Positions 5,722 to 62,855 of a stretch of DNA of 62,855 nucleotides are shown here, piece by piece. This DNA comes from a virus. Lineage: Duplodnaviria; Caudoviricetes. Every line of letters begins with the position of its first letter. The stretch's first letter is position 1. The translations under genes were made by a program, and so were the position numbers. The stretch lies in the IMG/VR virus record IMGVR_UViG_3300009537_000008, positions 1-62,855 of that record. One strand, 5' to 3'. The notes beneath the pieces are model-generated. The model did no database searches and had not been told where the DNA came from. It was given only the letters and a program-made list of their open reading frames with translations.

Positions 5722-6009
5722 TTAGCGATTTAACGCATTAAATATATAAGTGGCGGCAAACTGTTTTAATTCTATTTTATTCATCTGCCCAATCTTACCA
5801 TATACTGCACGGCGAGCTAATTCTGATATACCTTGTGGAATGGCTTTATTTTTTTCCAAAGATTCTTCCCATTTTACTATAGCAATTAATGGTTTATACT
5901 TGTATAATAATCTATATAATAATTCTGCCATTTTATTAGATATGTCTCTATTATTCTCCGCTAAGATTAGCTCTTCTTTTATAATTTGTTTTAGCTCTGA
6001 TTTTTTCAT
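5722..6009 (-). CDS. MKKSELK-leader family protein (putative internal head protein)
   Basis: MKKSELKQIIKEELILAE + unrelated cargo. Confidence 0.75.
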   Translation of the reverse strand: MKKSELKQIIKEELILAENNRDISNKMAELLYRLLYKYKPLIAIVKWEESLEKNKAIPQGISELARRAVYGKIGQMNKIELKQFAATYIFNALNR

Positions 6010-6512
6010 GATATATAAAATGTTAATTCGTAGTTGCCACTATCCATACCGTATACTTGCATCTGTAGATTTTTTTTACTGGGCTTACCATTTTTTATTA
6101 GTTCTATGGACGCTTTAAATGTTTTACCAACCCCAGGTTTACCCCGCCCTAGCGTAATTTGTTGAGCCCAATCGTCTTCATCTATTTCATACCCCTTTTT
6201 CTTCGTATAGGATTCGGCATATTGTACGGCAGCAGTGAAGGTTTTGAAATAAGTTTCTTCCCTTTCTTTAATTAATGGTGCCAATTTAATCATTTTATTT
6301 TCATTAACTTCTCCAATTAACTTTTTATAAATAGAAGTTGGAGCTGGGTGTTTCCGGTGCAACTGAGTGACAATCCCTCTCCAGGCTAAATCTCTTTTAT
6401 CCTTATCTATAGGAGGGGTTTGTTTCTTTAGCCAATAAACAAAAGATAGAATCTCATCTGGGGATTCTAACCACCATTTGGCCATATTAGGGAAATCTTC
6501 TTGTAGGTTCAT
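6006..6512 (-). CDS. Two-module hypothetical protein with internal leader-like segment
   Basis: MNLQE start, internal NKMIKLAPLIKE separating two apparent domains; coupled stop/start overlaps. Confidence 0.65.
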   Translation of the reverse strand: MNLQEDFPNMAKWWLESPDEILSFVYWLKKQTPPIDKDKRDLAWRGIVTQLHRKHPAPTSIYKKLIGEVNENKMIKLAPLIKEREETYFKTFTAAVQYAESYTKKKGYEIDEDDWAQQITLGRGKPGVGKTFKASIELIKNGKPSKKNLQMQVYGMDSGNYELTFYIS

Positions 6513-26814: not shown

Positions 26815-27411
26815 CTAAAAAGATGAATTATTTTTTTTAATTGGGCCTGAGTAATCTATTGTAATATCTAACCATAATTGGCTGATATAATAATCGTTAT
26901 TATTTGATTGAGTTTCATATCCAAATCCAGCGCCAGTGGTTGTATTAAAAATATCTACTGGTAATGCTAAGGAAGAAAATGATATATTATGCTCTTGCCA
27001 TACATTGGCATTATTATTACTAATAGTCTGAGTTAGAACTGCGCTAACATCATCTATTATAAATAAATCTAAATCTATATTTTTTCTATTTGTCATTAAT
27101 CTTATATGATAATCGATATTCGTTATTTGAAACGTTTGTATAAGCCCAGGATTTTCTAAAGCAAAATGTGCTAATGGTAATGGAGAAAAGAAAAATAAAT
27201 CAATGTCACCTGATGCATTGTTTATAGATTCATTATACGTATCATCATCAGTAACTGCTTCATTAATAGTAGTGGCGTTATTTAACACCGGTAGCACTGT
27301 GTTTATGTCAACAGGAGTAAACATCGTGGATTGAATATACCCAGTAGATGGTCTGATTCTATAAATCCTAGTAAAACTTCCCGCCATGTTATTATGGTCT
27401 TTTAACAACAA
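26815..27411 (-). CDS. Hypothetical beta-rich protein downstream of fibre (probable start 27387)
   Basis: ORF coupled to fibre gene. Confidence 0.6.
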   Translation of the reverse strand: MLLKDHNNMAGSFTRIYRIRPSTGYIQSTMFTPVDINTVLPVLNNATTINEAVTDDDTYNESINNASGDIDLFFFSPLPLAHFALENPGLIQTFQITNIDYHIRLMTNRKNIDLDLFIIDDVSAVLTQTISNNNANVWQEHNISFSSLALPVDIFNTTTGAGFGYETQSNNNDYYISQLWLDITIDYSGPIKKNNSSF

Positions 27412-30400
27412 TTGTTACTGATAAACCTAATGGCCCATTTCCTGCGGTAGGCATTCCTGTTGCGGCAGTGTCTAATATTACTGCTACTCTCGTCCCCTCT
27501 AAAATTGTTGGATTAGTTATTGATATACCAGAAAGTACTGCGGATGTATAGTATACTGCCGCAGTCCCCATTGCTAAATCAGATGCTAGTACATATACAC
27601 CATTACCGGTACCACCTTGTCCGTTATATAATACAACATTTACATATATATCACTATTACCTTGTGCGTCTACCGAGGCTATCACATCAATAATTTCATA
27701 ATTATTCAGTTCTGTTGGAATAACAATATATGATCCATCAGTTTCCGGAGTTTGTGCTGCTAATGGTAATGTATCATTTATTTCTTCAAACATTAAATAC
27801 GGATTTAATGAAATATATCTTTCATCAGCCACTTTTGATAGTGTGGCTACCACAACAGTCCCACCCGCACTTAAGTTTGTAAACTCAATATCTGTTAGAA
27901 CTATTGTATATACAGGATTTATATATGAAATGGAATTAATCCTTCCTAAATAAAAATTAGCTGATGCGTATTCATCGAATAATCTAATTCGATCCCCTCT
28001 ATTCATTGAATCGAACCATGTATTAATACCTAATGATTGTATAGAATCCTCATTGAATTCTATAGTAGATATTCCTGCACCAGGAGTATGTGGATCGAAA
28101 AATAATTCTGGAGAGCTCGGGGACACCCCAACGGAATAAAAGGAAAATGAATCACCTCCAAATATTCCATTAGCACCAGTAGCACCAGTAGCACCAGTAG
28201 CACCAGTAGCACCATTATTACCATATCTTGTAAAAGATATTATAATGTTTTCATTATTAGTAAGAGTACCATTGCTACTAATAAATGTAACAGGAATTCT
28301 AGTATATCCTGATGGTAAACTTGATCCACTAGTAATATGATACACAACAAAAATTGTAGGATTATTTTTTGACCATATTGTTAATGCTCCTCTAGGATTA
28401 GTACTGGCTCCAGTTAATGCAGCTATCCAATTAGTTCTTAAATTTACTCCATTAAAATTTAAATCATCGATAAATAATTGGGTGACACTACCTAACGTGG
28501 CATTATTAAATCTTATAAACCCATTTCCAGGATCAGCATCTGTTGTGGTGGTACTAAATTGAAATTCCATAGAATTTCCACCAAAATGCCCAGTAGTTCC
28601 CGATGTTCCACTAGTCCCAGCAGTACCTCCACCTCCTGTTGAACTAGTACCTGATGTTCCGGCCGAACCACTGCTACCAGTACTTCCTGAACTACCACTA
28701 GTACCAGAAGTTCCACTTGTCCCGGATGTTCCAGAAGTACCTGTGCTTCCTGATGAACCAGTAGAACCACTCGACCCAGTTGAGCCACTACTACCTGACG
28801 TTCCACTTGTGCCCGAAGTTCCGCTAGTACCTGTTGACCCACTACTACCAGTACTCCCCGAAGAACCAGTAGATCCCGAGCTACCGCTAGTTCCTGATGT
28901 TCCAGAAGTTCCACTTGTCCCTGATGTGCCAGTACTACCACTTGAGCCAGTGCTGCCGGAACTTCCTGTTGAACCACTACTACCAGTGCTACCGGAACTA
29001 CCACTAGTCCCTGATGTACCTGTACTACCGCTACTTCCCGAAGTTCCACTAGTACCTGAGGTTCCACTGGTTCCAGTACTACCAGAACTACCACGTGTAC
29101 CAGAAGTCCCACTTGATCCTGAAGTCCCACTAGTTCCTGTGGAACCACTTGAACCAGTACTACCAGATGAACCAGAACTACCACTTGTACCTGAAGTCCC
29201 ACTAGTCCCTGAGCTACCACTCGTACCAGATGTTCCAGTACTACCACTAGATCCTGTTGACCCTGAGCTTCCAGTAGAGCCCGAACTTCCTGATGTTCCA
29301 CTAGTACCTGATGTTCCACTAGTTCCAGTACTACCTGATGACCCAGTAGAACCGCTTGAACCAGAACTTCCTGATGTTCCACTAGTACCTGATGTTCCAC
29401 TAGTTCCAGTACTACCTGAGCTTCCTGTACTACCAGATGACCCAGTAGATCCCGAACTTCCACCAGTACCTGACGTTCCAGATGTACCGCTGGTACCAGT
29501 ACTACCACTAGAACCCGTGCTGCCGCTCGAACCAGTACTACCTGAGCTTCCACTAGTACCTGATGTTCCACTTGTACCAGATGTTCCTGTAGATCCAGAA
29601 CTACCTGTTGATCCTGAAGACCCGGTACTACCACTACTTCCACTAGTACCAGATGTGCCAGAGGTTCCTGATGATCCACTTGTTCCAGTACTACCCGAAC
29701 TTCCCGTAGACCCTGAGCTACCACTAGTACCTGATGTTCCTGTACTACCCGAACTTCCCGTAGACCCTGAAGTGCCACTGGTTCCAGATGTTCCACTGGT
29801 ACCGGTTGACCCACTACTACCCGTACTACCAGATGACCCCGTAGATCCGGAACTACCACTACTACCTGTTGTTCCAGAAGTACCTGAACTACCAGCTGTA
29901 CCACTAGTACCTGTGGAACCACTTGAGCCAGAAGTCCCCGAAGTTCCACTAGTACCTGATGTACCTGAACTACCTGAGGTACCACTTGAACCAGTACTAC
30001 CACTACTACCTGACGTCCCAGTGCTCCCACTCGATCCAGTTGAACCTGAACTTCCTGACGTTCCACTACTTCCCGATGTTCCGTTCTGGCCTGATGTACC
30101 ACTTGAACCTGAAGTGCCACTGCTGCCACTGGTACCAGAAGATCCAGATGTACCATTTATTCCACTGGTGCCTGATGTACCTGAACTACCTGAAGTGCCG
30201 CTGGTTCCGGAACTTCCAGCTGATCCGCTGGTACCGGTCGAGCCTGAACTACCACTGGTTCCTGAACTTCCAGATGTTCCACTGGATCCAGTACTACCCG
30301 AAGAACCAGTACTTCCACTACTTCCTGACGTTCCACTCGTTCCAGCTGTTCCACTTGAACCAGTACTACCAGATGAACCAGAAGTTCCACTAGTACCTGA

Positions 30401-32638
30401 TGTGCCGCTGGTTCCAGAAGTCCCTGTACTACCTGATGAGCCAGTGCTTCCACTGCTACCGGTAGAGCCTGAACTACCACTGGTTCCGGAAGTCCCACTC
30501 GTTCCTGACGTACCACTTGTCCCAGTACTTCCAGAACTTCCTGTAGAACCACTACTTCCGCTTGTTCCAGATGTTCCTGTAGAGCCACTAGACCCAGTTG
30601 AACCACTGCTACCACTAGTACCTGATGTTCCAGAAGTTCCTGTGCTACCCGATGATCCAGAACTACCACTAGTTCCAGAAGTTCCTGAAGTGCCACTGGT
30701 TCCAGATGTTCCTGTGCTACCCGATGATCCAGTAGTTCCACTTGTGCCTGATGTACCCGAAGTACCACTAGTACCCGTACTACCTGATGAACCAGTAGAC
30801 CCACTACTACCAGTACTTCCTGAGCTACCACTAGTGCCAGTACTACCACTTGTACCACTAGTTCCTGATGTCCCACTAGTACCAGTACTACCACTTGAAC
30901 CAGTACTACCCGAGCTACCTGTTGAACCACTACTTCCGCTTGTTCCAGAAGTACCACTTGTTCCAGATGTTCCTGTACTACCACTCGATCCTGTGGAGCC
31001 ACTGCTTCCTGTAGACCCCGAGCTTCCCGATGTTCCACTAGTACCTGACGTCCCAGAAGTACCTGTACTACCTGATGAGCCAGTTGATCCACTACTTCCA
31101 CTTGAGCCAGCACTTCCTGAAGTGCCTGAGGTTCCACTTGTGCCACTAGTACCTGACGTCCCAGAAGTACCTGTACTACCACTACTTCCTGAAGTGCCTG
31201 AGGTTCCGCTTGTTCCAGAAGTCCCTGTACTACCACTTGAACCCGAACTACCACTAGTACCAGAAGTCCCGCTGGTTCCTGTAGACCCGGAACTACCGCT
31301 AGTCCCGGATGTACCACTGCTACCAGATGTTCCAGTACTACCACTACTACCTGAAGTGCCACTGGTACCAGATGATCCTGAAGAACCGGATGTTCCACTT
31401 GAACCTGATGTTCCAGACGACCCAGTTGATCCACTACTACCCGAGGTTCCGGTACTACCACTTGTTCCACTTGAACCTGAAGTTCCCGAAGTTCCACTAG
31501 TACCTGATGTGCCGCTGGTTCCAGTACTACCTGAACTTCCACTCGTACCCGATATACCACTTGTACCTGATGTTCCGCTACTTCCTGATGTACCGCTAGA
31601 ACCAGAAGTACCTGTACTACCTGATGAGCCAGTGCTACCACTTGATCCTGTAGATCCACTACTACCTGTTGACCCACTACTACCAGTACTGCCTGATGAA
31701 CCGGTCGTACCACTAGTTCCAGTACTACCGCTTGTTCCAGAAGTGCCTGAAGTCCCTGTACTACCTGATGAACCAGTTGAACCACTGCTACCACTTGTAC
31801 CAGAAGTTCCTGAAGTTCCGCTTGTTCCTGCGGTTCCTGTAGACCCGGAACTACCTGATGAACCTGATGAACCTGTACTACCAGAACTACCACTAGTACC
31901 TGTACTACCACTTGAGCCAGTACTTCCTGACGAGCCTGATGTTCCGCTTGTACCAGAACTACCTGATGTACCGCTAGTAGACACCTGGCCTCCTATAGGG
32001 GTGTGTACATGGGAAGGCCTAAGTGCTCCCTCTACATATGTCCAAATAGTAACCCCCGCACCATGCTCAGTCCAAGCCTTTAACACTACTTTTATTCTAT
32101 CAGTTGTATTTAATAATGTTGTTGTGGGGACTGTAGTTATCCAATCATATGTTTTAATAGTTGTATCAGTTAATAATGGACTCTGTGTATCAAAAATATG
32201 AACTGGATTATTTCCTGCATTATCTGTTACATAAAACGATGCAGAATAAAAAGTATTATTAGGATTATTTGTAGATAATTTAGTAAACGTTCTAAACCTC
32301 CATTCACCACCCGGAATAATCATTACATTTGGCTCTCCAATTGGAGTATAAAAAGTTGCAATGTCCGTTAATACTGAATTAGGTATCGAACCAGTTACTA
32401 CCTGTTCTAAATTTGGTGGGAATAAAGTAGAAGTAAAATCTAATGAATTAGCAATATCACTACTTCCTGAAGTGAAATAGAATACTGTTCCTATTGCTAT
32501 TCCATCCCTACCTGATGTTCCACTAGTTCCTGAACTACCTGATGTTCCAGAAGTTCCCGCAGATCCACTCCCACCAGTAGAACTAGTACCTGAAGTTCCA
32601 CTAGTAGAAAATTGTGCTGTTAAAAATCCCTGACTCAT
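27392..32638 (-). CDS. Giant virion fibre protein with Gly-(Ser/Thr)-(Ser/Thr) triplet repeat
   Basis: 1748 aa; globular N- and C-terminal domains around ~1100 aa of GSS/GTS/GST; short GAT collagen-like repeat; DADPGNGFIRFNN fibre-like motif; in structural operon. Confidence 0.8.
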   Translation of the reverse strand: MSQGFLTAQFSTSGTSGTSSTGGSGSAGTSGTSGSSGTSGTSGRDGIAIGTVFYFTSGSSDIANSLDFTSTLFPPNLEQVVTGSIPNSVLTDIATFYTPIGEPNVMIIPGGEWRFRTFTKLSTNNPNNTFYSASFYVTDNAGNNPVHIFDTQSPLLTDTTIKTYDWITTVPTTTLLNTTDRIKVVLKAWTEHGAGVTIWTYVEGALRPSHVHTPIGGQVSTSGTSGSSGTSGTSGSSGSTGSSGSTGTSGSSGSTGSSGSSGSSGSTGTAGTSGTSGTSGTSGSSGSTGSSGSTGTSGTSGTSGSTGTSGTTGSSGSTGSSGSTGSSGSTGSSGSTGSSGSTGTSGSSGTSGSSGTSGTSGISGTSGSSGSTGTSGTSGTSGTSGTSGSSGTSGSTGTSGSSGSTGSSGTSGSSGTSGSSGSSGTSGTSGSSGSTGTSGSSGTSGTSGSSGSTGTSGTSGTSGSSGSSGSTGTSGTSGTSGTSGSSGSTGTSGTSGTSGTSGTSGTSGSAGSSGSSGSTGSSGSTGTSGTSGTSGTSGSSGSTGSSGSTGSSGSTGTSGTSGTSGTSGSSGSTGSSGSTGSSGSTGTSGTSGTSGTSGSTGTSGSSGSTGSSGSTGSSGSTGTSGTSGTSGTSGTTGSSGSTGTSGTSGTSGTSGTSGSSGSSGSTGTSGTSGTSGSSGSTGSSGSTGTSGTSGSSGSTGSSGSTGTSGTSGTSGTSGTSGSSGSTGSSGSTGSSGSTGTSGTSGTSGTSGTSGSSGSTGSSGTAGTSGTSGSSGSTGSSGSTGSSGTSGSSGTSGSSGSTGTSGSAGSSGTSGTSGSSGTSGTSGINGTSGSSGTSGSSGTSGSSGTSGQNGTSGSSGTSGSSGSTGSSGSTGTSGSSGSTGSSGTSGSSGTSGTSGTSGTSGSSGSTGTSGTAGSSGTSGTTGSSGSSGSTGSSGSTGSSGSTGTSGTSGTSGTSGSTGSSGSTGTSGTSGSSGSTGSSGSTGTSGSSGTSGTSGTSGSSGSTGSSGSTGSSGSTGTSGTSGTSGTSGSSGSTGSSGSTGSSGSTGTSGTSGTSGTGGSSGSTGSSGSTGSSGSTGTSGTSGTSGTSGSSGSSGSTGSSGSTGTSGTSGTSGTSGSSGSTGSSGSTGSSGSTGTSGTSGSSGTSGTSGTSGSSGSSGSTGSSGSTGTSGTSGSSGTSGTRGSSGSTGTSGTSGTSGTSGSSGSTGTSGTSGSSGSTGSSGSTGSSGSTGSSGSTGTSGTSGTSGTSGTSGSSGSTGSSGSTGSSGSTGTSGTSGTSGTSGSSGSTGSSGSTGSSGSTGTSGTSGTSGTSGTSGSSGSTGSSGSAGTSGTSSTGGGGTAGTSGTSGTTGHFGGNSMEFQFSTTTTDADPGNGFIRFNNATLGSVTQLFIDDLNFNGVNLRTNWIAALTGASTNPRGALTIWSKNNPTIFVVYHITSGSSLPSGYTRIPVTFISSNGTLTNNENIIISFTRYGNNGATGATGATGATGANGIFGGDSFSFYSVGVSPSSPELFFDPHTPGAGISTIEFNEDSIQSLGINTWFDSMNRGDRIRLFDEYASANFYLGRINSISYINPVYTIVLTDIEFTNLSAGGTVVVATLSKVADERYISLNPYLMFEEINDTLPLAAQTPETDGSYIVIPTELNNYEIIDVIASVDAQGNSDIYVNVVLYNGQGGTGNGVYVLASDLAMGTAAVYYTSAVLSGISITNPTILEGTRVAVILDTAATGMPTAGNGPLGLSVTIVVKRP
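28171..28214. repeat. Perfect 9-bp tandem repeat (tagcaccag) encoding GATGATGATGA
   Basis: Four full copies plus a partial copy. Confidence 0.9.
28590..31980. repeat. Degenerate 9-bp-period coding repeat (G-S/T-S/T)
   Basis: Gly every third codon; synonymous codons mixed; higher GC than flanks. Confidence 0.95.
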
Positions 32639-37941: not shown

Positions 37942-38866
37942 CTAATTTTTTTGTTAACATCTCTCGTAATGAAAGCTGCTTTGAGTTATTTTGTAACAAA
38001 GTTTGTACACCATCAAATCCTAATTCTGATGGATCTTTTTCGGTAAGCTCAGTAAAGTATACATTTACTCCTTCATTCTTAAAATAATTAATATGATCTA
38101 AAATTTTATCAGTGGCATCAGTATCCAAAGTAATATATAACTCCTTCACTCTTTGCTCAATAATGGCAGTTCTTAATTTATCTGATATTTCTTTTCCGTA
38201 TAAAGGAATGGCATTTCTTTTAATAGCAATAGCATCAAATGCCCCCTCACATAATGTTATAGGTAGTTCCCAGTTAATTAAATATTCAAAGCCAATTATA
38301 TCTTTTGAAACGGATGGGGAATGATGTTTCCTTTTTATATTAGGAGCAAAAGTTCTTCCAGTAAAAAAGTTTAAATTTCCATCTATATCATAAGATGGAA
38401 TAATAATCATATCGCGGTATTCTCCATTTGTACAGTAACCCATTTTATACCTAATGATATCAAACCCTGTTACACCCCGCCTAATTAGGTACTTTATAGC
38501 CTGTTTATATTGGAAGTCATCTGTAGGTATCCATAATGGAATAAATTCATTAGGTAAAGATAATTTATTAACTCTATTAGGATTATCATAATGGGGTTTC
38601 TTTTTTAATTCTGGCAGTAATTCCTTTAATTGGGTAAATTGATTATCATTAGCATTAGCCTTTTTAAATAAAGACCATAATGATTTTCCTTTAGTATCAG
38701 AACATACCCAACATCTCCATTTCTGAGTTAAGATATTAACTTGGAGTTTTCTTTTATGATGATGGCAAACCGGGCATTTAAAAGATATCTCCCCAGACTT
38801 ACCAGCCACTGCTCGGCCAGAGCCTAATACCAACTCTAAGAGATGGATGATAGATTGACTATTCAT
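37910..38866 (-). CDS. DNA primase (Zn finger + Toprim)
   Basis: CPVC...CWVC; IIIPSYD; LCEGAFDA; LDTDA; KDP. Confidence 0.9.
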   Translation of the reverse strand: MNSQSIIHLLELVLGSGRAVAGKSGEISFKCPVCHHHKRKLQVNILTQKWRCWVCSDTKGKSLWSLFKKANANDNQFTQLKELLPELKKKPHYDNPNRVNKLSLPNEFIPLWIPTDDFQYKQAIKYLIRRGVTGFDIIRYKMGYCTNGEYRDMIIIPSYDIDGNLNFFTGRTFAPNIKRKHHSPSVSKDIIGFEYLINWELPITLCEGAFDAIAIKRNAIPLYGKEISDKLRTAIIEQRVKELYITLDTDATDKILDHINYFKNEGVNVYFTELTEKDPSELGFDGVQTLLQNNSKQLSLREMLTKKLDGNTKDRRRI

Positions 38867-38870
38867 TATA

Positions 38871-38902
38871 TAAATATAATGAAAATTATTGTAATAACCA
38901 AA
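38871..38902 (-). promoter_or_regulatory. Bacteroidetes-type promoter, probably leaderless primase transcript
   Basis: TTTG-N20-TATATTTA only 4 nt before ATG. Confidence 0.7.
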
Positions 38903-38903
38903 T

Positions 38904-39290
38904 TTATTTTTCTAAACTTTTCTTATAAATTTCCATAAAAACTTTTAATGGTATAGCAATAAATGGTTCCATGCCATTACGCTTGAATACTACTGTAGGA
39001 GTATGGCCTTTTGCATTTGCCTCACATTGCTCAATTGCTTTGTAGATATTAAGGGATTCTACATTCTTGCATTCAATGGAGAATGGAAATAATTTCCTCG
39101 CCATAGGTGACAATAATACATCTTCACCACTTGCACCCATTGATGTTGACCTAACATCGTCAGGATCTAATTGTTCTTTAAATGATTCCAATATTAAATC
39201 TCTTACAATTTGTTGTAGTTTTCTTCCTTTTGCTTTCCTTGCTGAGGTTGATATACCATTTCTTTTCTTTTTGACTTTTTTAACAGCCAT
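38904..39290 (-). CDS. PD-(D/E)XK endonuclease, Holliday junction resolvase-like
   Basis: KAKGRKLQ, SMGASGEDV, SIECKN, VVFKRN. Confidence 0.8.
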   Translation of the reverse strand: MAVKKVKKKRNGISTSARKAKGRKLQQIVRDLILESFKEQLDPDDVRSTSMGASGEDVLLSPMARKLFPFSIECKNVESLNIYKAIEQCEANAKGHTPTVVFKRNGMEPFIAIPLKVFMEIYKKSLEK

Positions 39291-39303: not shown

Positions 39304-39335
39304 TAAATATAATGAAAATTATTGAGACTACCAAA
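39304..39335 (-). promoter_or_regulatory. Bacteroidetes-type promoter
   Basis: TTTGgtagtctc...cat-TATATTTA, 20-nt spacer. Confidence 0.75.
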
Positions 39336-39338
39336 TAA

Positions 39339-55716: not shown

Positions 55717-55748
55717 TAAATATAATGAAAATAATTGAGACTACCAAA
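55717..55748 (-). promoter_or_regulatory. Bacteroidetes-type promoter
   Basis: TTTGgtagtctc-...-TATATTTA, 20-nt spacer. Confidence 0.75.
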
Positions 55749-55754
55749 TTTATT

Positions 55755-56801
55755 TCAAGAATATACATTGGATTTTATTTCTCCTGGGTTACTATCGTCA
55801 TCATCCTTTTTTTTATTAATATAGTAATCTACCATATCATCCAGGAAAGCTGTGTTGGATTTAACTGGTTCAGATGGTAGGTGAGTATTATCCTCTTCTA
55901 CAAATTCAGGTGTGGGTGTAACTGTGCTTTGTATTTTAAGATCTTCGGGTTCTGCGGTTACTGACGTAACCTTGTGGTCAATAACTAAATTCATATCTTC
56001 TATTTTTGATTGTTTTACAAATATTGTGTTTGCTCCTATTAATAAAGCTACTGCTAATGGGTCGAATACAAATATCAATATCAGCATTAGCCAATTAGCG
56101 ATTCTATCCATATGTACTCCAGTGATGGAACTGATGTATTTTAATGGTCCTAACTCAGCAATACTATTATCAGAATTTAATGTTAATATTTTTAAATCCA
56201 ATTCTCGGATAGCATCATTCTTATCAGAAATCTTCCCCTGAGAGCTTGTTATCTCAGTTGTAATCGACTTAATCTCATCACCTATGCCTTTTATACTATT
56301 TTCTGTGCGCCTCGCGGAGGCGCTTTGATTTCGATCCATGGCCACATCAATCCTATCTTCCCTCTTATTTCTGGCACTGGAAAGGGAAGTTATCCTCTCT
56401 CTACTGTTATCTATATCTAATTTATATTGGGCAACATCTTGCAGTAGAAACTCCTTCTGGTTAGTTAGCATTTGTACTTGAGAACTAATATGTTCAGACT
56501 GCCTGGATACATTAGAGTATGCACTGGATAAGAAGCCGTATATGCCCGCGCTGGTAATTAGTACCATTACTATTATTCCTACATATAAATAGGTTTTGAG
56601 TATAGTATTAAGGTCCTTCCAAGCCCTATATAATAAGGACACTGCTACTAACTTACCCAGCTCAATGCTGGAAGCCATTATAATAACAGATGTCTTCGCA
56701 CCACTAAATAACTGACTCAATCCCGATATGGAAAAGAACGCAGCAGTTGCCGCTAATATCAGAGCAGTGACCATAGTAACGTATGGTAGCCACTTATTCA
56801 T
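55755..56801 (-). CDS. Membrane protein with long coiled coil
   Basis: Three N-terminal TMs (AAFFSISGL, ELGKLV, ITSAGIYGFLS), coiled coil, LIFVFDPLAVAL TM. Confidence 0.75.
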   Translation of the reverse strand: MNKWLPYVTMVTALILAATAAFFSISGLSQLFSGAKTSVIIMASSIELGKLVAVSLLYRAWKDLNTILKTYLYVGIIVMVLITSAGIYGFLSSAYSNVSRQSEHISSQVQMLTNQKEFLLQDVAQYKLDIDNSRERITSLSSARNKREDRIDVAMDRNQSASARRTENSIKGIGDEIKSITTEITSSQGKISDKNDAIRELDLKILTLNSDNSIAELGPLKYISSITGVHMDRIANWLMLILIFVFDPLAVALLIGANTIFVKQSKIEDMNLVIDHKVTSVTAEPEDLKIQSTVTPTPEFVEEDNTHLPSEPVKSNTAFLDDMVDYYINKKKDDDDSNPGEIKSNVYS

Positions 56802-57662: not shown

Positions 57663-59636
57663 TTAACAATCTTCCGCAAACTTTGCATTCAATGATTTTG
57701 CTACCTGGACTACATTATTAACATCAATCATTTGAGCATCCACCCCATACATCTCTCTGAAGTCGTTTAATTGTGAAGTGTAACTCCCAATGAAGTAACT
57801 AATAACTTTAATCCCTTTTGCTTTGATCCGTTTTACTACCCCGGCCGTATGTTGTATTGCTCCGGAGCCACTATACTGAATCTTACCATACCGTCCTTGT
57901 GGCATACCATCTGAGAAATTAAGGAAATACGATTGAACCGAATTTGATCCTGGTGTAAGGTATTTTATCATAGGCTCAATAGCTAATCCTTCCGGAGTCA
58001 GGCTACCTGCGTGTAAATACTTGAATAACGATTGAATCTTTGTGATCTTATCCTTCTTAGAATCATATGCTATTAATACCTGCGGTATACTTGGTCTACC
58101 ACCATCAAACCTATATGAAATACACACTCTAATGTTTTGTATCATTGAGGCGGCTTTCGCTATGGCTATGGCACATATTTGTGACTTCTCCCAGTTGCGG
58201 CCACTCATACTACCCGATGCATCGATTGATATATGTAAATCAACTGGTTGGTGACTATTAATAACTATCTGGTTAAATACATTATAATTATCATACCCTA
58301 ACTGGTTAATTAATCTCCTATCAATTTTACCCTTATCCAACCTGGTGTATTTAAGGTCTCTAGTGTAATTTCTTACTTGCAATTTCCTACCTAATTGTTG
58401 TCCTAATACTAACCCTTTATTAACTATTAGTTGGGATGAATCCAATCTGTAGTTCTGTATAATATGTATACCAGAATCAATTACTTTTTGATTGAATGTT
58501 TTAATTATCACACAATCAATTTTTGTATTTCTATAATTTGCTTGGCCAAGTTCAAAATCTAAATTGGCAATGTTATTAACCTTGGTTGCGGTTTGCTTAG
58601 CCATTTTTTTCTTGGCGACATTACCACTTAATAATTCCCGTTGCTCGTCGAGAAGATTTTCTAATTGCTCACGCTCTTTAGCTGTTAATTCTAATGGAGA
58701 ATTACCATCTGGGGTATTACTATTTTCGCTATCACTACCTTGACCCCCACCAGTTACATCCTGGCTGCCATTATCATTCCCAGCCTGATCCTCGGTATCT
58801 TCGCTATCTTGGTTATTACTATCGGAATCTTCCGTTTTACTATCAGACTTTTGAGATTCTTCACCACCACCCGCACCCGACTCAGTTTGTGGAGCTGAAT
58901 CAATGCTTTCTGGTTGTTTTGGGGTGTTTGCTATTTCAATGCTAATTAAATCATAAATGGCATTTGCAACATCCAACGCATCCTGGGTATTTTTTAATCT
59001 CCCAATATTATTAATATCTATAAGATCTTTAATCTCCTTAAGCTTTGGTAATGCGGTTAAATCAGCATCCTTATGGAATATATTAACAACCCTAAACATA
59101 TAAGACTCCCAATTAACATCTCTACCCTTAGTAGATCTTAATCCCTTACCAATTTGGTCGTTAAAAAAATACTTTGCATATAATGTATGGTAATATCCTT
59201 TATAACCTGGGCTGGATTTAAATACTATATTATCAATCCTGCGGTCTTCGATTAAGTTAAGGAGATTTTTGGAATGACAATTTGTGTTTTTAAGACAACT
59301 AAAATCCGTATAAGCAATATGACTTGCTTCGTGCAATGCTAAACCAATTGTGGTATCAATACTTTTTTTACTTACATCTCCTGCGATTACAATGTGACTA
59401 CCATCAGTATACGAATTATACCCCGAAGAAAACTTCACTGGTATCTCTTTATTACAAACAATCTTCACATAATTGGTAACAGCTTTTTGTAAGGACGCGG
59501 CTTTCCATGCTTTTGATTGATCTTCTTCCGGCATTATGGAGGACTCAGAGCCTAACCACATATCCGAATAACATTTCGGTTTATATTTTTTTGGCATCTT
59601 TGGCATCCGACCTTTTCCTAATTTTAATACCTTCAT
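57663..59636 (-). CDS. VWA-domain protein with N-terminal HExxH domain (CobT-like MoxR partner)
   Basis: LHEASH, NLIEDRRI, acidic linker, IDASGSM MIDAS, TPEG, FSDGMP. Confidence 0.85.
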   Translation of the reverse strand: MKVLKLGKGRMPKMPKKYKPKCYSDMWLGSESSIMPEEDQSKAWKAASLQKAVTNYVKIVCNKEIPVKFSSGYNSYTDGSHIVIAGDVSKKSIDTTIGLALHEASHIAYTDFSCLKNTNCHSKNLLNLIEDRRIDNIVFKSSPGYKGYYHTLYAKYFFNDQIGKGLRSTKGRDVNWESYMFRVVNIFHKDADLTALPKLKEIKDLIDINNIGRLKNTQDALDVANAIYDLISIEIANTPKQPESIDSAPQTESGAGGGEESQKSDSKTEDSDSNNQDSEDTEDQAGNDNGSQDVTGGGQGSDSENSNTPDGNSPLELTAKEREQLENLLDEQRELLSGNVAKKKMAKQTATKVNNIANLDFELGQANYRNTKIDCVIIKTFNQKVIDSGIHIIQNYRLDSSQLIVNKGLVLGQQLGRKLQVRNYTRDLKYTRLDKGKIDRRLINQLGYDNYNVFNQIVINSHQPVDLHISIDASGSMSGRNWEKSQICAIAIAKAASMIQNIRVCISYRFDGGRPSIPQVLIAYDSKKDKITKIQSLFKYLHAGSLTPEGLAIEPMIKYLTPGSNSVQSYFLNFSDGMPQGRYGKIQYSGSGAIQHTAGVVKRIKAKGIKVISYFIGSYTSQLNDFREMYGVDAQMIDVNNVVQVAKSLNAKFAEDC

Positions 59637-59694
59637 AACCTTTATCTTTTTAAGTATACATAAATATAATAAAAATTTTTCAGACTACCAAATT
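59637..59694 (-). promoter_or_regulatory. Early promoter plus leader (repeat copy)
   Basis: TTTG(59692-59689)-N20-TATATTTA(59668-59661)-...aaaaagataaaggtt-ATG. Confidence 0.75.
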
Positions 59695-59711
59695 TATTTT
59701 GAATAAACCAG

Positions 59712-59737
59712 AAAAATAGCCCCGAAAAATGGGGCTA
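59712..59737 (-). terminator. Rho-independent terminator after AAA+ gene
   Basis: tagcccc/ggggcta stem with T run on minus strand. Confidence 0.7.
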
Positions 59738-59750
59738 AGGGTTATGTTCC

Positions 59751-60845
59751 TCAAAATTGGTTATCAACTAACGTATCCGAACTCTTATCATCAATAAACT
59801 TTTGAACGATTTGCTTAACGAACACCCTTTCCGAGCTGGTTCCTCCATCTGCGGGATAGAATGGGTAAACTGCGACTTCTGCTGCTTCCATAAGGGAGAA
59901 CCCATCCGATATCAACCCAGCCATCTCAATGGTTAATCTGGTTGAAACTGCCGTCCCAATTTGTGGGCTTTCCGTTCTCATTTCCTCCCTGGTTAAGTGT
60001 GCTATAGATGCTATTGCGGCTATCGACTCATTAGCAACATCTGGATATAATAACTTCAACAAATAAATCTCTTCAGCCAAATTCAATGTTGGCATCTCAA
60101 TCGTTGTGCTAAACCTATCCATTAAGGCCCTATCCATTACCCTGGTTCCAGTATATTCATTACCAATATTTGCAGTGGCTATAAAACAAACACCCTCTGC
60201 AACATTTATCACTGGAGTATCAGGAGCTTCATCAATCCTTAAATATCTCTGGTGGTCATCCAACACTGGCATTAAAATATTACCCGCGTCTGGGTGTGCT
60301 CTGGATAATTCATCCAACACTATCACTGCGTTTGGCGTGGTTATTGCTGTTATAAACTCCGACTTGGAGAAATATGTTCCTGTATCCTTATTAAAATGGG
60401 TGTTACCAATTAAGGATGACCGAGGATCTTGGGTTGCTCCACAATTAAAAATAAACATTTGGCGATTTAAACTCTCCGCTATACATTTAGCGACTTTAGT
60501 TTTACCAGTCCCTGCGGCACCTAACATTATCACATTCTTACCTCTCAATACCGCTCTGGTAAGGTATTTCCATTTAACCTCCTCCAAAATGATATCTTTC
60601 GGTTTATTACTATAAGAGCTGTGGATCATTTGGAGAATGGGTGCTACTTCTTTAGTTTCCATTTTAACTCCATTCAACTTAGCACCAACATCTAATAAGA
60701 TAAATCCACCGTTTGGTAGAACCTCTATTCCAACACCTTCTGAAAATGCGAGGCGCTTAATTTTAGTAGGAATTTTCACTATTTCCCCCTGGGGATTTAC
60801 ACATTTTAATTTTCCTTTTGGAGTTTTTTGAACTTTTAATATCAT
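59751..60845 (-). CDS. MoxR/CbbQ/CobS-family AAA+ ATPase
   Basis: GAAGTGKT, VLDELSRAHP, ATANIG, DRALMDRF, STR. Confidence 0.9.
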   Translation of the reverse strand: MILKVQKTPKGKLKCVNPQGEIVKIPTKIKRLAFSEGVGIEVLPNGGFILLDVGAKLNGVKMETKEVAPILQMIHSSYSNKPKDIILEEVKWKYLTRAVLRGKNVIMLGAAGTGKTKVAKCIAESLNRQMFIFNCGATQDPRSSLIGNTHFNKDTGTYFSKSEFITAITTPNAVIVLDELSRAHPDAGNILMPVLDDHQRYLRIDEAPDTPVINVAEGVCFIATANIGNEYTGTRVMDRALMDRFSTTIEMPTLNLAEEIYLLKLLYPDVANESIAAIASIAHLTREEMRTESPQIGTAVSTRLTIEMAGLISDGFSLMEAAEVAVYPFYPADGGTSSERVFVKQIVQKFIDDKSSDTLVDNQF

Positions 60846-60903
60846 AACCTTATCTTTTTAATTATACATAAATATAATGATAATTTTTCAGACTACCAAA
60901 TTT
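60846..60903 (-). promoter_or_regulatory. Early promoter plus leader (repeat copy)
   Basis: TTTG(60900-60897)-N20-TATATTTA(60876-60869)-...aaaaagataaggtt-ATG. Confidence 0.75.
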
Positions 60904-60917
60904 ATGCCAAAATATTT

Positions 60918-61154
60918 TTATTTTTCTTCAAATTTCTGTAAGATTATCTGTTTTATAGTATTAATAGCTGAGTTGGGATCAACACTAAAGAACGTTAGAG
61001 ACCCATAAACTTTAGCAATCTCATATAAAGTTATAGTACATTGAGCGCCATCGTCTCTGGTTAATATAGCAATGCTATCAGGCCCGGGGGTTGACATTTG
61101 AATATGTTCCACCTCCAATAATTCTAATAGCATTGCTAATCCTGATGTCATCAT
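60918..61154 (-). CDS. Hypothetical protein
   Basis: Coupled small ORF. Confidence 0.55.
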   Translation of the reverse strand: MMTSGLAMLLELLEVEHIQMSTPGPDSIAILTRDDGAQCTITLYEIAKVYGSLTFFSVDPNSAINTIKQIILQKFEEK

Positions 61155-61606
61155 AATTTCTTTTTAGGTAGAGACTGGCCAACAGTAAATTTAGTTAGCG
61201 TATCTAAATCCTTTTGATTCATAAACCGGTTCCAAAGGAATATACGATTAGGGAAACTTGGATCAGCTTCTAATGTGGCTACCCGCCTATCACCTTCTCT
61301 CATATATTCAAATGGCGTTATTCTGACCCAATTATTTTCCTTTGCATTAAGAATTTCCATCAATATCCTTGTATGATCCTTGGGCACTGATACAAAATAT
61401 GCATAACATACTTCATACTCCTTATCCATAAAATATTTAAAGACCCAGTCTACTTCTTGATCATAATATAATATGTATTCAGTATTATGTTCTAAAAAAG
61501 TTTTAGATGCGTTTTCTTTAATAATCCATTTAGAGGATTGTCCTAATTGAGCGTGAGTGATTGAATATCCCAGCGTCAATACTAAAACTAATAGTAGATT
61601 CTTCAT
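61151..61606 (-). CDS. Secreted hypothetical protein
   Basis: Signal peptide MKNLLLVLVLTLGYSITHA-Q; Gln at +1 is typical of Bacteroidetes signal peptides. Confidence 0.65.
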   Translation of the reverse strand: MKNLLLVLVLTLGYSITHAQLGQSSKWIIKENASKTFLEHNTEYILYYDQEVDWVFKYFMDKEYEVCYAYFVSVPKDHTRILMEILNAKENNWVRITPFEYMREGDRRVATLEADPSFPNRIFLWNRFMNQKDLDTLTKFTVGQSLPKKKL

Positions 61607-61833
61607 TCGTATATGTTTATACTGGGATCAATAGTAGAATTTGAACTCCAGCCCTTTCGTAAAGCATAATCAAATACCCACCAAGAAAGATATCCAATAA
61701 ACCAGGCAAGTGCAGTCCAGTATTCCGATGGGTATTCAGCAGATAACTTGCCCATCCCAAATAGTAATCCCCACACTGTTAAAAAAATTATAGCCGCTTT
61801 AATTTTGTCTTTTGTTGTTTTGTGTAATGACAT
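61603..61833 (-). CDS. Small two-TM membrane protein
   Basis: Two hydrophobic helices. Confidence 0.6.
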   Translation of the reverse strand: MSLHKTTKDKIKAAIIFLTVWGLLFGMGKLSAEYPSEYWTALAWFIGYLSWWVFDYALRKGWSSNSTIDPSINIYE

Positions 61834-61839
61834 TGTTAA

Positions 61840-62169
61840 TTAATTTTGATTAGTATGATTTTTAAATCCGATAATTGTATTTGTAGGATTATTGACTTTT
61901 GAAGAATCCCCCTGTAACTGTTGGTTTTCATATGCTAATTCATCAGCTTCCTGATTTATTGATTGTAATTGATTTAATGCAGAATGATAATTATTAAGTA
62001 ATTCATTAAAATTAATCACTGCGTCACATAATGTAACTAACGCCACTGTTGAAAACACCCCAGTTAATACTGGATATTCCTGATAGACAATCACTGCGGC
62101 TGTTATATAACAGGCCATATTTACTATAGGCCTTATTCCGAATTTGAAGATGTTGCTTATATTATTCAT
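61840..62169 (-). CDS. Small membrane protein with coiled coil
   Basis: Two hydrophobic segments then coil; TIIGFK tail. Confidence 0.6.
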   Translation of the reverse strand: MNNISNIFKFGIRPIVNMACYITAAVIVYQEYPVLTGVFSTVALVTLCDAVINFNELLNNYHSALNQLQSINQEADELAYENQQLQGDSSKVNNPTNTIIGFKNHTNQN

Positions 62170-62348
62170 TTTTTTGTATACTCCCCTGATTTTAATTTAT
62201 TAATAAGCTCTGCTCGTTTTGTTATAAGAGCTTCATACACATCATTCTCGATTGGCGATCCAGCATCCATTGATCCGTAATCAGCTTCCATTTGAGCTAT
62301 CTCAGCGCTAGTAACTATTAATTCGTCTAATGTTTCTTGATAATTCAT
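62166..62348 (-). CDS. Hypothetical protein
   Basis: Coupled small ORF. Confidence 0.55.
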   Translation of the reverse strand: MNYQETLDELIVTSAEIAQMEADYGSMDAGSPIENDVYEALITKRAELINKLKSGEYTKK

Positions 62349-62436
62349 ATATAATTATTTAAAGTTTAGAAAACGCCCACTGCTACTTGGAGGCAAGTTA
62401 ATATCTCATTCATGAGCATTGGTTAATTTTATTACA

Positions 62437-62468
62437 TAAATATAATGATAATTTTTCAGATTACCAAA
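62437..62468 (-). promoter_or_regulatory. Bacteroidetes-type promoter
   Basis: TTTGgtaatctg...cat-TATATTTA, 20-nt spacer. Confidence 0.75.
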
Positions 62469-62530
62469 TTTATTTTACTTAAAGCTGAACTTTAATCTCC
62501 CAATATCGGAGTTGTAAAACATTAAAACGA

Positions 62531-62768
62531 TGCCATAACACGGTATATAAAAAATTAATTTACTACCATCCCTAATTGCTTTTTAACTATCTCAATCAAA
62601 CTTGTGGATATACGTTCTGCGATACATTCAATGTGTTCGTGTTCATCAGCCCAAGCGTTCCATTCGAGCATTAGTTTACCACAAGTTTTACACTTTGGTT
62701 GTTCTGATATTATTATTTTTCTTTCCATACTCGTAAATTAACTTCTTATATACCGAAACCGTTAGGCA
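62531..62768 (+). mobile_element. attC-like imperfect inverted repeat enclosing a small gene
   Basis: Arms 62531-62563 and 62733-62768; inner 23 nt complementary at 21; outer cores CCATAAC and GTTAGGC (GTTRRRY). Confidence 0.6.
62555..62728 (-). CDS. 57-aa Cys/His-containing protein inside the attC-like loop (absent from ORF track)
   Basis: MERKIIISEQPKCKTCGKLM...HEHIEC...MVVN*. Confidence 0.65.
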   Translation of the reverse strand: MERKIIISEQPKCKTCGKLMLEWNAWADEHEHIECIAERISTSLIEIVKKQLGMVVN

Positions 62769-62853
62769 AAAGTGTGGCAAGAAAGTTTTGTCTATAATTT
62801 GAAATTTTGTAGTTGCCACCCCTTCGCATAACAACGGCTAAAACGACAATATT
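62746..62853 (-). CDS. 3' end of an ORF entering from the window edge
   Basis: ...NIVVLAVVMRRGGNYK...PNGFGI* open frame reading through the repeat arms. Confidence 0.4.
   Translation of the reverse strand, partial: NIVVLAVVMRRGGNYKISNYRQNFLATLLPNGFGI
62761..62832. repeat. Second inverted repeat sharing the GTTAGGC core
   Basis: gttaggcaaaagtgtggcaa (62761-62780) vs ttgccaccccttcgcataac (62813-62832), 16/20 complementary. Confidence 0.75.
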
Positions 62854-62855
62854 TA

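Follow-up and report, generated by a model that had tools for sequence, protein, structure and literature searches.

Phages of flavobacteria seem to use integron-like cassettes to swap accessory genes

Virulent phages have no obvious machinery for exchanging genes as modules, yet their accessory regions are mosaic. The question of how such mosaics come about is raised in a compact form by the right end of a phage contig (Duplodnaviria; Caudoviricetes), IMG/VR record IMGVR_UViG_3300009537_000008, where a hairpin with the frame of an integron attC site encloses in its loop a gene for a 57-amino acid (aa) protein. We analyzed positions 1 to 62,855, named here the window, which correspond to the complete record, a linear fragment representing an estimated 32% or so of the phage genome, with nearly all genes on the minus strand. 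Comparison with metagenome contigs and with cultured phages indicates that the hairpin is one member of a family found in phages of Flavobacteriia, that it travels as a unit of 250 bp, and that exchange points in these accessory regions can be named almost to the base.

The gene-holding hairpin and its neighbors

The stem of the hairpin is built from two 23-nt arms, returned by an inverted-repeat search at 62541–62563 (left, L''-like) and 62733–62755 (right, L'-like) of the plus strand, with 169 nt between them. The arms are 91% complementary, with 21 of 23 positions paired, and the two mismatches, each A-C on the plus strand, turn into G-T on the minus strand, where they fall at stem positions 11 and 14 when the right arm is read on the coding strand. 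These coordinates and letters confirm the pairing and the mismatch polarity given in the original prediction, which a model had made from the letters of the window. As it had also proposed, the loop is filled by the 57-aa open reading frame (ORF; 62555–62728, minus strand): on the coding strand, the right arm precedes the ATG by 5 nt, and the left arm overlaps the final two codons and the stop codon.

Outside the arms, the outer boxes TGCCATAAC and GTTAGGCA (62531–62539 and 62761–62768, respectively) pair over 4+4 bp with a single bulged A. The first, recognized from its letters and from the alignment, is R''-like and ends in AAC; the second contains the R'-like box GTTAGGC (62761–62767). The spacers between boxes and arms are unequal, with 1 nt at 62540 and 5 nt at 62756–62760, an asymmetry that is kept across the hairpin family described below. 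The predicted attC-like frame stands as regards the AAC and GTT cores, the imperfect stem, and the unequal spacers. Set against the consensus of attC boxes, RYYYAAC/GTTRRRY, the right box GTTAGGC matches, and the left box, CCATAAC, agrees at only two of the four degenerate positions. The most frequent start of the right box in relatives is GTTAT.

Among all inverted repeats of the window spaced by 400 nt or less, the arm pair ranks first (score 17; runner-up 14). A score of 17 or more was reached in 6 of 581 first-order Markov resamplings of the window, about 1%, which is suggestive but not decisive alone; the matter is settled by the conservation of the repeat in 15 other contigs. The gene-in-loop site is also the only one of the 63 minus-strand hairpins scoring 12 or more in the window that fits the frame. 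Folded as DNA, the minus strand reaches −25.3 kcal/mol and the plus strand −19.7 kcal/mol. No relevant Rfam family was matched in 60800–62855 (E ≤ 10) or in 15 metagenome loci (E ≤ 1).

The second inverted repeat that had been foreseen is present as a hairpin framed by GTTA and TAAC at 62761–62832, with 20-nt arms (62761–62780 and 62813–62832, 80% complementary) and a 32-nt loop. On the coding strand it comprises 16 Watson-Crick pairs, two G-T pairs, and two mismatches. Its homologs are those intergenic hairpins of the family that are richer in G+C, and a hairpin of the metagenome contig L021 (560–631, coding-strand numbering) is similar to it in arm and loop. The last letters, 62833–62855, look like the beginning of a further site: on the minus strand, about 20 of 24 bases, compared by eye, agree with an intergenic site of Polaribacter phage P12002L over its 3' stem arm, spacer, and GTT box, so that the array appears to run off the contig, as anticipated. 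The window carries one full site, one GTTA…TAAC hairpin, and, at the contig end, one truncated third site.

A 250-bp cassette in different phage contexts

An exact-pattern scan with the arm located 15 metagenome contigs, and in all of them BLAST similarity to the window is confined to 62508–62769, with nothing outside matching. The block 62511–62764 recurs in the 15 contigs at 83–96% identity, apart from two short end fragments (94% over 47 nt in L016 and 100% over 34 nt in L018). The flanks are mutually unrelated, except that L011 is the same as L021 and L015 the same as L024, with L025 partly sharing the latter. Column agreement was computed with one representative per flank class, leaving out L021 and L024 (duplicates), L016 (end fragment), and L018 (different cargo). 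On the left side, it rises from 3–6 of 10 to 9–10 of 10 at the GTT of 62511–62513, the left exchange core, where nine of the 10 representatives agree in the G and all 10 in the T; the matches of four contigs start at 62510–62511. On the right side, agreement is 9–11 of 11 through the GTTA of 62761–62764, with the GTT of the right exchange core in 11 of 11, and falls to 5–7 of 11 from 62765 onward.

The same limits are seen between close copies. L015, L020, L023, and L025 carry copies that are 98.5–100% identical and have four different right-hand neighbors, diverging just past GTT, and a 746-nt block common to L015 and L025 (99.3% identical) ends at the core on both sides. As judged from these alignments, 62512–62761 (TT…G on the plus strand) forms a cassette of 250 bp that is complete in itself and has been carried into at least 11 different contexts in phages. 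The mobility that had been proposed is thus borne out by a conserved block that ends at GTT on both sides. Metagenome contigs may be mis-joined at repeats; the cultured isolates described below show the same exchange.

The arms and the gene are separable. In L018, the same arms surround an unrelated ORF of 67 aa, whose last residues, encoded by the arm, are also the same, and on this alignment the arm frame is independent of its cargo. L008 and L009 encode relatives of the 57-aa protein with 70–72% identity and have no flanking repeat, which indicates that the arms are not tied to the gene. The left arm is identical in 12 of 13 other copies, L022 being one base off; L013 is without the left arm and its protein has a different C terminus. 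Scans of viral contigs with the arm and with the arm of the second hairpin gave no match for either, a scan of genome contigs with the arm gave none, and 59700–62855 had no blastn match in cultured phages.

Beside the left arm, and including the left core, lies a decayed "mini unit" (62511–62539, plus strand), framed by a GTT-start box and an AAC-end box. It corresponds to the slot in which cargo normally lies, and in the window this slot is empty. Elsewhere (L011, L012, L014, three copies in L019, and L021), the slot is formed by a hairpin of 9 bp, the stems of which covary while the loop is conserved (ATTAAAAC on the plus strand). An Endonuclease_7 (HNH) gene fills it in L015 (603–1037), L024 (959–1393), and L025 (4529–4963), with a 14-nt direct repeat on its flanks. 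Other copies resemble the precise HNH-less form of the slot, and this comparison suggests either a homing-type insertion of the HNH gene or its deletion between the 14-nt direct repeats.

A family of framed hairpins in phages of Flavobacteriia

Reading the loci in coding orientation, together with a hairpin-first scan, revealed a family of which the window hairpin is a member (a looser scan for AAC, a 0–8-nt spacer, a stem, a spacer, and GTT, with a threshold of 9, was dropped as too noisy). On the coding strand, the usual layout is TAAC, a spacer of 4–7 nt that generally begins with GG or GT, the stem, 1–3 nt, GTTR…, and then the next gene. Stems are of about 18–22 bp and loops of 24–79 nt, so that ordinary members span about 70–135 nt, and the related arrays contain from three to eight or more sites each. 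In addition, an inverted repeat of about 15 nt surrounds each gene individually, starting with GTTR and ending with YAAC. We found 13 such repeats, and 12 of the 13 differ in the same manner at arm position 11, always with G-T on the coding strand. Repeats started by GTTA are about 10 times commoner than the 4-mer frequency predicts (13 pairs in 277 occurrences, versus 24 pairs in 1276 for AAAA).

The irregular pairs of the stems are strongly polarized. In 48 distinct AAC…GTT-framed hairpins from the loci and the isolates, 5'G-3'T pairs number 74 versus 20 for 5'T-3'G, and C-A mismatches 23 versus 7 for A-C, whereas 134 unframed hairpins of the same DNA are symmetric (192 versus 178 and 19 versus 16, respectively). 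The typical pattern of the framed hairpins is a C-A near position 5 and a G-T at positions 11 and 14, and the arms of the window have G-T at exactly 11 and 14. With this pattern and the AAC/GTT frame, the window hairpin is a regular member of the family save for its 169-nt gene-holding loop: by its sequence, it is a conserved attC-like site structure belonging to a family that separates gene cassettes in phages of Flavobacteriia. The gene-in-loop unit is an exception, genes being normally located between hairpins. The "inside-out" array that had been imagined from the window is therefore not the rule, since the genes of relatives are found between hairpins, in their own 15-nt GTTA…TAAC frames.

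Exchange points in cultured phages

Among cultured phages, L024 has matches in Flavobacterium phage mymlan6-1 (84%) and in P12002L, there in the methyltransferase region. Both phages have the same intergenic hairpin layout; one P12002L site has an 11-nt loop identical to that of the mini unit beside the 57-aa gene. We compared seven Flavobacterium phages: mymlan6-1, mumin9-2, filifjonk9-1, tooticki6-1, snork9-1, hattifnatt9-1, and snusmum6-1. Their shared blocks are 96–100% identical, while cassette content and order differ. We counted 59 distinct block boundaries. AAC occurs within −8 to +6 nt of 41 of them, compared with 32% of random positions, and two more are at TGTTA, the other foot of the hairpin. 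The usual letters at a boundary are …TAAC(GTT)| and |TAACGTT…, and the right boundary of the window block is at the same TAAC/GTT place. The original prediction had proposed to look for core-bounded polymorphism in relatives, and such polymorphism is what these isolates display. The alignments show exchange points at the AAC/GTT core, close to base resolution but not to the exact phosphodiester bond.

In the leftward methyltransferase region of the Flavobacterium phages (L026 and L028–L033), a three-gene block occurs at different positions and the sets of methyltransferases differ. According to the part of Nilsson et al. 2020 cited here (PMC7077304), the presence or absence of one methyltransferase in these phages is linked to plating efficiency; hairpins are not mentioned in that part. 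Since methyltransferase sets and block positions vary, the published link may rest on cassette exchange.

Recombination sites or regulatory hairpins

The interpretation to which we give slightly better than an even chance is that the window carries an attC-like site with a gene in its loop, which moves as a 250-bp cassette in an array similar to an integrase-less integron cassette array (CALIN), through structure-directed exchange of single strands by an enzyme acting in trans. The strand-asymmetric mismatches point to a structure-directed, site-specific reaction on folded single strands. The coding (minus) strand would be the better-folding one, and the enzyme would be supplied in trans and would not be a phage-encoded tyrosine recombinase. 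In this model, the loop of an ordinary family hairpin would have expanded to hold the 57-aa gene, with the adjacent gene slot empty. Excision of the unit as a circle would bring its two 15-nt boxes to either side of its own hairpin, and boxes and hairpin together would form one long bulged hairpin with fixed wobbles, following the logic of attC. The polarity of the mismatches would make the coding (minus) strand fold better as DNA, and a structure-specific recombinase, provided in trans, would cut at the core. Recombination sites are favored by the fixed C-A mismatch, by the recurrent exchange at a core of 5–7 nt between otherwise different hairpins, and by the gene-enclosing boxes.

Several observations weigh against this interpretation. 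The left box CCATAAC does not fit RYYYAAC, and the site (62531–62768) is 238 nt long, above the roughly 57–141 nt usual for attC, because its loop holds a gene. In folding energy, the 271-nt region does not stand out (z = −0.96 for the minus and −0.21 for the plus strand). Canonical cassette ORFs read toward their attC (sense), whereas the genes here are antisense if read on the strand that has the 3' GTT as its exchange core. The G-T pairs are on the mRNA strand, where they would be equally fitting for a role at the RNA level. In the isolates, 16 of the 59 boundaries are off the core, most of them, as seen by eye, in the adjoining box or within the initial bases of a hairpin arm that is similar; one junction can also recur in several pairs, so that the events behind the boundaries do not count as independent. 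For the context of the window itself, no circles, excision junctions, or empty sites were seen, and no syntenic relative of its phage was found.

The enzyme is a further difficulty. The tyrosine recombinase family PF00589 had no match in the window, in agreement with the earlier remark that no integrase is visible there, nor did it match any of three other sequences, the complete mymlan6-1 and P12002L genomes and contig L009 (0 of 3), in a search for which 14 of 14 control genomes scored; the IntI-like enzyme that had been suggested was thus found neither in the window nor in the two complete related phage genomes. According to the cited part of PMC9024848, 93% of complete integrons are in Gammaproteobacteria and one complete integron is named in Bacteroidetes. 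Integrons being rare in the latter phylum, a host IntI is unlikely to be generally available.

The competing explanation that survives best, although we consider it rather unlikely, is that the hairpins are regulatory elements similar to the stem-loop motifs (PeSLs) of T4-type phages. They would act on the transcript as terminators, in processing, in stability, or as insulators, with stems that pair the 5' untranslated region (UTR) of each gene with its 3' end. Shuffling of the cassettes would in that case need no dedicated recombinase and would proceed through homologous or homeologous recombination, copy-choice, or break repair via TAAC/GTT microhomology at the foot of the hairpin. In its favor are the intergenic position of the hairpins or their overlap with the 5' UTR and stop codon, the wobble pairs that are G-U on the mRNA strand, and the RNA fold of the minus strand, which keeps the long stem in both the minimum free energy and the centroid structures. 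It needs no integrase, and none was found in the window or in the complete relatives searched; the L013 context has a RecT and a PDDEXK nuclease, and some boundaries (16 of 59) are inside similar hairpin arms or the adjoining box. T4-type phages are a precedent, as they are described in the parts cited here of PMC2839356 and PMC4122927 to shuffle genes at promoter/stem-loop motifs and to form mini-circles. The explanation is less at ease with exchange that recurs where neighboring hairpins often share only the core of 5–7 nt, and with mismatches specific in position and polarity (always 5'G-3'T at fixed positions), which a plain terminator or stability stem does not need. The recurrent C-A does not pair in RNA, and the 15-nt gene-enclosing repeats extend into coding sequence. 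No T-tract terminator-like site and no sigma-70-like promoter was detected at the hairpins by a scan that omits Bacteroidetes promoters and large loops. The regulatory explanation stays alive because of the missing integrase and the G-U polarity.

More tentatively than the CALIN-like interpretation, we envisage as possible that phages of Flavobacteriia own a cassette-exchange system that is independent of IntI and follows an integron-like site logic, run by an unrecognized enzyme of phage or host or by hairpin-directed replication or repair, and shuffling between virulent phages anti-defense genes such as methyltransferase genes and a Tad6-like anti-Thoeris gene. Its features would be the 15-nt boxes with their obligatory G-T wobble, the hairpins with fixed mismatches, and exchange at the TAAC/GTT core, and the unit of the window would represent the smallest form of a "selfish" cassette, in which a recombination site, having acquired a gene in its loop, spreads alone.

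A miniature transposon with terminal inverted repeats (MITE- or MPME-like), moved by a transposase encoded elsewhere, is very improbable. The 23-nt inverted repeat around a small ORF and the many contexts of the block would suit it, and with the MPME elements of mycobacteriophages, ultra-small mobile elements of phages have a precedent. However, the two ends of the conserved block are unequal, about 30 nt lying past the left arm versus only 9 nt past the right arm, and nothing beyond the common GTT(A) core is duplicated as a target site. The mismatches of its arms are those typical of a hairpin family in which the other hairpins are not ends of transposons, ordinary genes without these arms are moved by the same kind of exchange, and no transposase was seen. 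Still less credible is an invertible switch flipped by a site-specific invertase: 23-nt repeats around a 169-nt segment do resemble the invertons of Bacteroidetes, but the segment is a conserved protein-coding gene, and the arm variant with two G adjoins the ATG in the window and in every copy with both arms, so that no copy is inverted. The transposon and inverton explanations both fail on anatomy, with asymmetric ends, no duplication, and no inverted copy.

Relation to known systems

With canonical integron cassettes and attC sites, the family shares imperfect palindromes with AAC…GTT cores, stems of variable sequence and conserved structure, unpaired spacers, and strand-asymmetric irregularities; in both, the cassette ends at the GTT core and starts with a sequence complementary to the box after the gene. 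It differs from integrons by having no attI, no Pc, and, as judged by the PF00589 searches, no intI, by genes that are antisense to the polarity of exchange, and by a host phylum in which integrons are rare. It differs from canonical attC sites by the boxes of about 15 nt with their fixed G-T at position 11, by unequal spacers (4–7 versus 1–3 nt), and by a 169-nt protein-coding loop.

CALINs are defined by at least two clustered attC sites, in the part of PMC4889954 cited here. In the sections of Qi et al. 2023 considered (PMC9892861), 17 CALINs were found in phages, among them a CALIN of P12002L with two methyltransferase genes and two attC sites predicted by general attC models; section 3.4 reports that IntI1 recombined one P12002L site into attI1, a site that may or may not be one of those seen here. 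The phage CALINs of that report are alike in having AAC/GTT-framed hairpins between genes of a virulent phage, methyltransferase cargo, and no integrase, and the P12002L methyltransferase region contains sites of the hairpin family of the window, including the 11-nt loop of the mini unit. The sections considered differ in that they do not describe the wider family, the 15-nt boxes, the fixed wobbles, the breakpoints at which relatives exchange blocks, or a site with a gene in it. On this comparison, the system works like a CALIN and is close to the P12002L report.

PeSL cassettes, as presented in the cited parts of PMC2839356 and PMC4122927, have stem-loop motifs at gene borders in plastic regions of virulent T4-type phages. 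They are alike in providing exchange points at which small accessory genes are inserted, deleted, or reordered, and circular by-products are reported for them. They differ in having a strong sigma-70-like promoter and a terminator and in recombining by homology, whereas here no such promoter or T-tract terminator is evident, only a short core is shared, and the stems contain fixed non-canonical pairs.

The MPME elements can be compared with the unit of the window itself. We take them to be very small mobile elements with inverted repeats and one small ORF, as here, but transposon-like, with short terminal repeats and presumably no hairpin family, AAC/GTT frame, or array context.

A literature search on hairpins of Flavobacterium phages returned unrelated papers only, and in the literature searched, PMC9892861, as far as the sections considered go, is the only paper on attC sites of phages. 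We did not find in that literature the wider family in phages of Flavobacteriia, the fixed non-canonical pairs, the 15-nt boxes, base-level exchange points in cultured phages, or a gene-in-loop site spreading as a 250-bp unit.

If the sites are true recombination substrates, integron-type cassette biology would extend to virulent phages of a phylum nearly without integrons, and cultured pairs (Flavobacterium sp. LMO6 and LMO9 with their phages) could be used for finding the enzyme. A protein-coding gene in the loop of a site pushes the known limits of the variable terminal structure of attC.

The 57-aa protein, the cargo, and other genes of the window

The product of the gene in the loop is a small Cys/His protein of zinc-finger-like appearance. 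Its homologs fall into 70 clusters, every one of them unnamed, and C13, C16, and C35 are invariant while H30 and H32 are nearly so. Differences between copies of the gene number 175, 140, and 333 at the first, second, and third codon positions, respectively. No Pfam or PHROG family was matched by the protein, and tblastn found no match in cultured phages. The AlphaFold model is confident (mean pLDDT 87.8) and has a short knuckle followed by a long helix; compared with the PDB by Foldseek, it gave nothing at E ≤ 0.001 and only weak zinc-finger look-alikes. We infer that the product would be a small zinc-binding protein. In L010 (about 5990–6500), its Cys/His motif recurs with 42% identity over 45 residues inside a longer frame, which by eye runs on into a GIY-YIG/T5orf172-like segment, and from this resemblance the 57-aa protein may be derived from the DNA-binding module of a nuclease.

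The contexts of the block are phage accessory regions, with genes for methyltransferases, an HNH protein, a GIY-YIG protein, a PAPS-reductase-like protein, and a Tad6-like protein; a KwaB-like protein is also among them, besides the RecT and PDDEXK nuclease of L013. The cargo includes genes that decide host range. In L020 (4061–4765), a gene for a Tad6-like inhibitor of type I Thoeris lies in a GTTA…TAAC frame between two family hairpins, so that anti-defense genes are counted as cassette cargo.

Elsewhere in the window, a motif of about 40 nt is found upstream of genes in seven minus-strand copies (63–101, 38862–38916, 39304–39336, 55717–55755, 59657–59713, 60865–60905, and 62433–62489). It contains TAAATTTG, which fits TAnnTTTG, the −7 promoter box of Bacteroidetes, and continues with a conserved leader. 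From these letters, the motif is probably a phage promoter class and points to a host among the Bacteroidota. At 57663–60845 (minus strand), a MoxR-like AAA ATPase (AAA_5, CbbQ_C), which has no relatives among the viral contigs, adjoins a 657-aa protein with a weak vWA match; pairs of a MoxR-like ATPase and a vWA gene are known from cells and are unusual in phages. Finally, very long ORFs of other frames and of the opposite strand, such as the 1152-aa ORF at 28743–32201 (plus strand), overlap a 1748-aa ORF at 27392–32638 (minus strand), which suggests a biased or repetitive composition.

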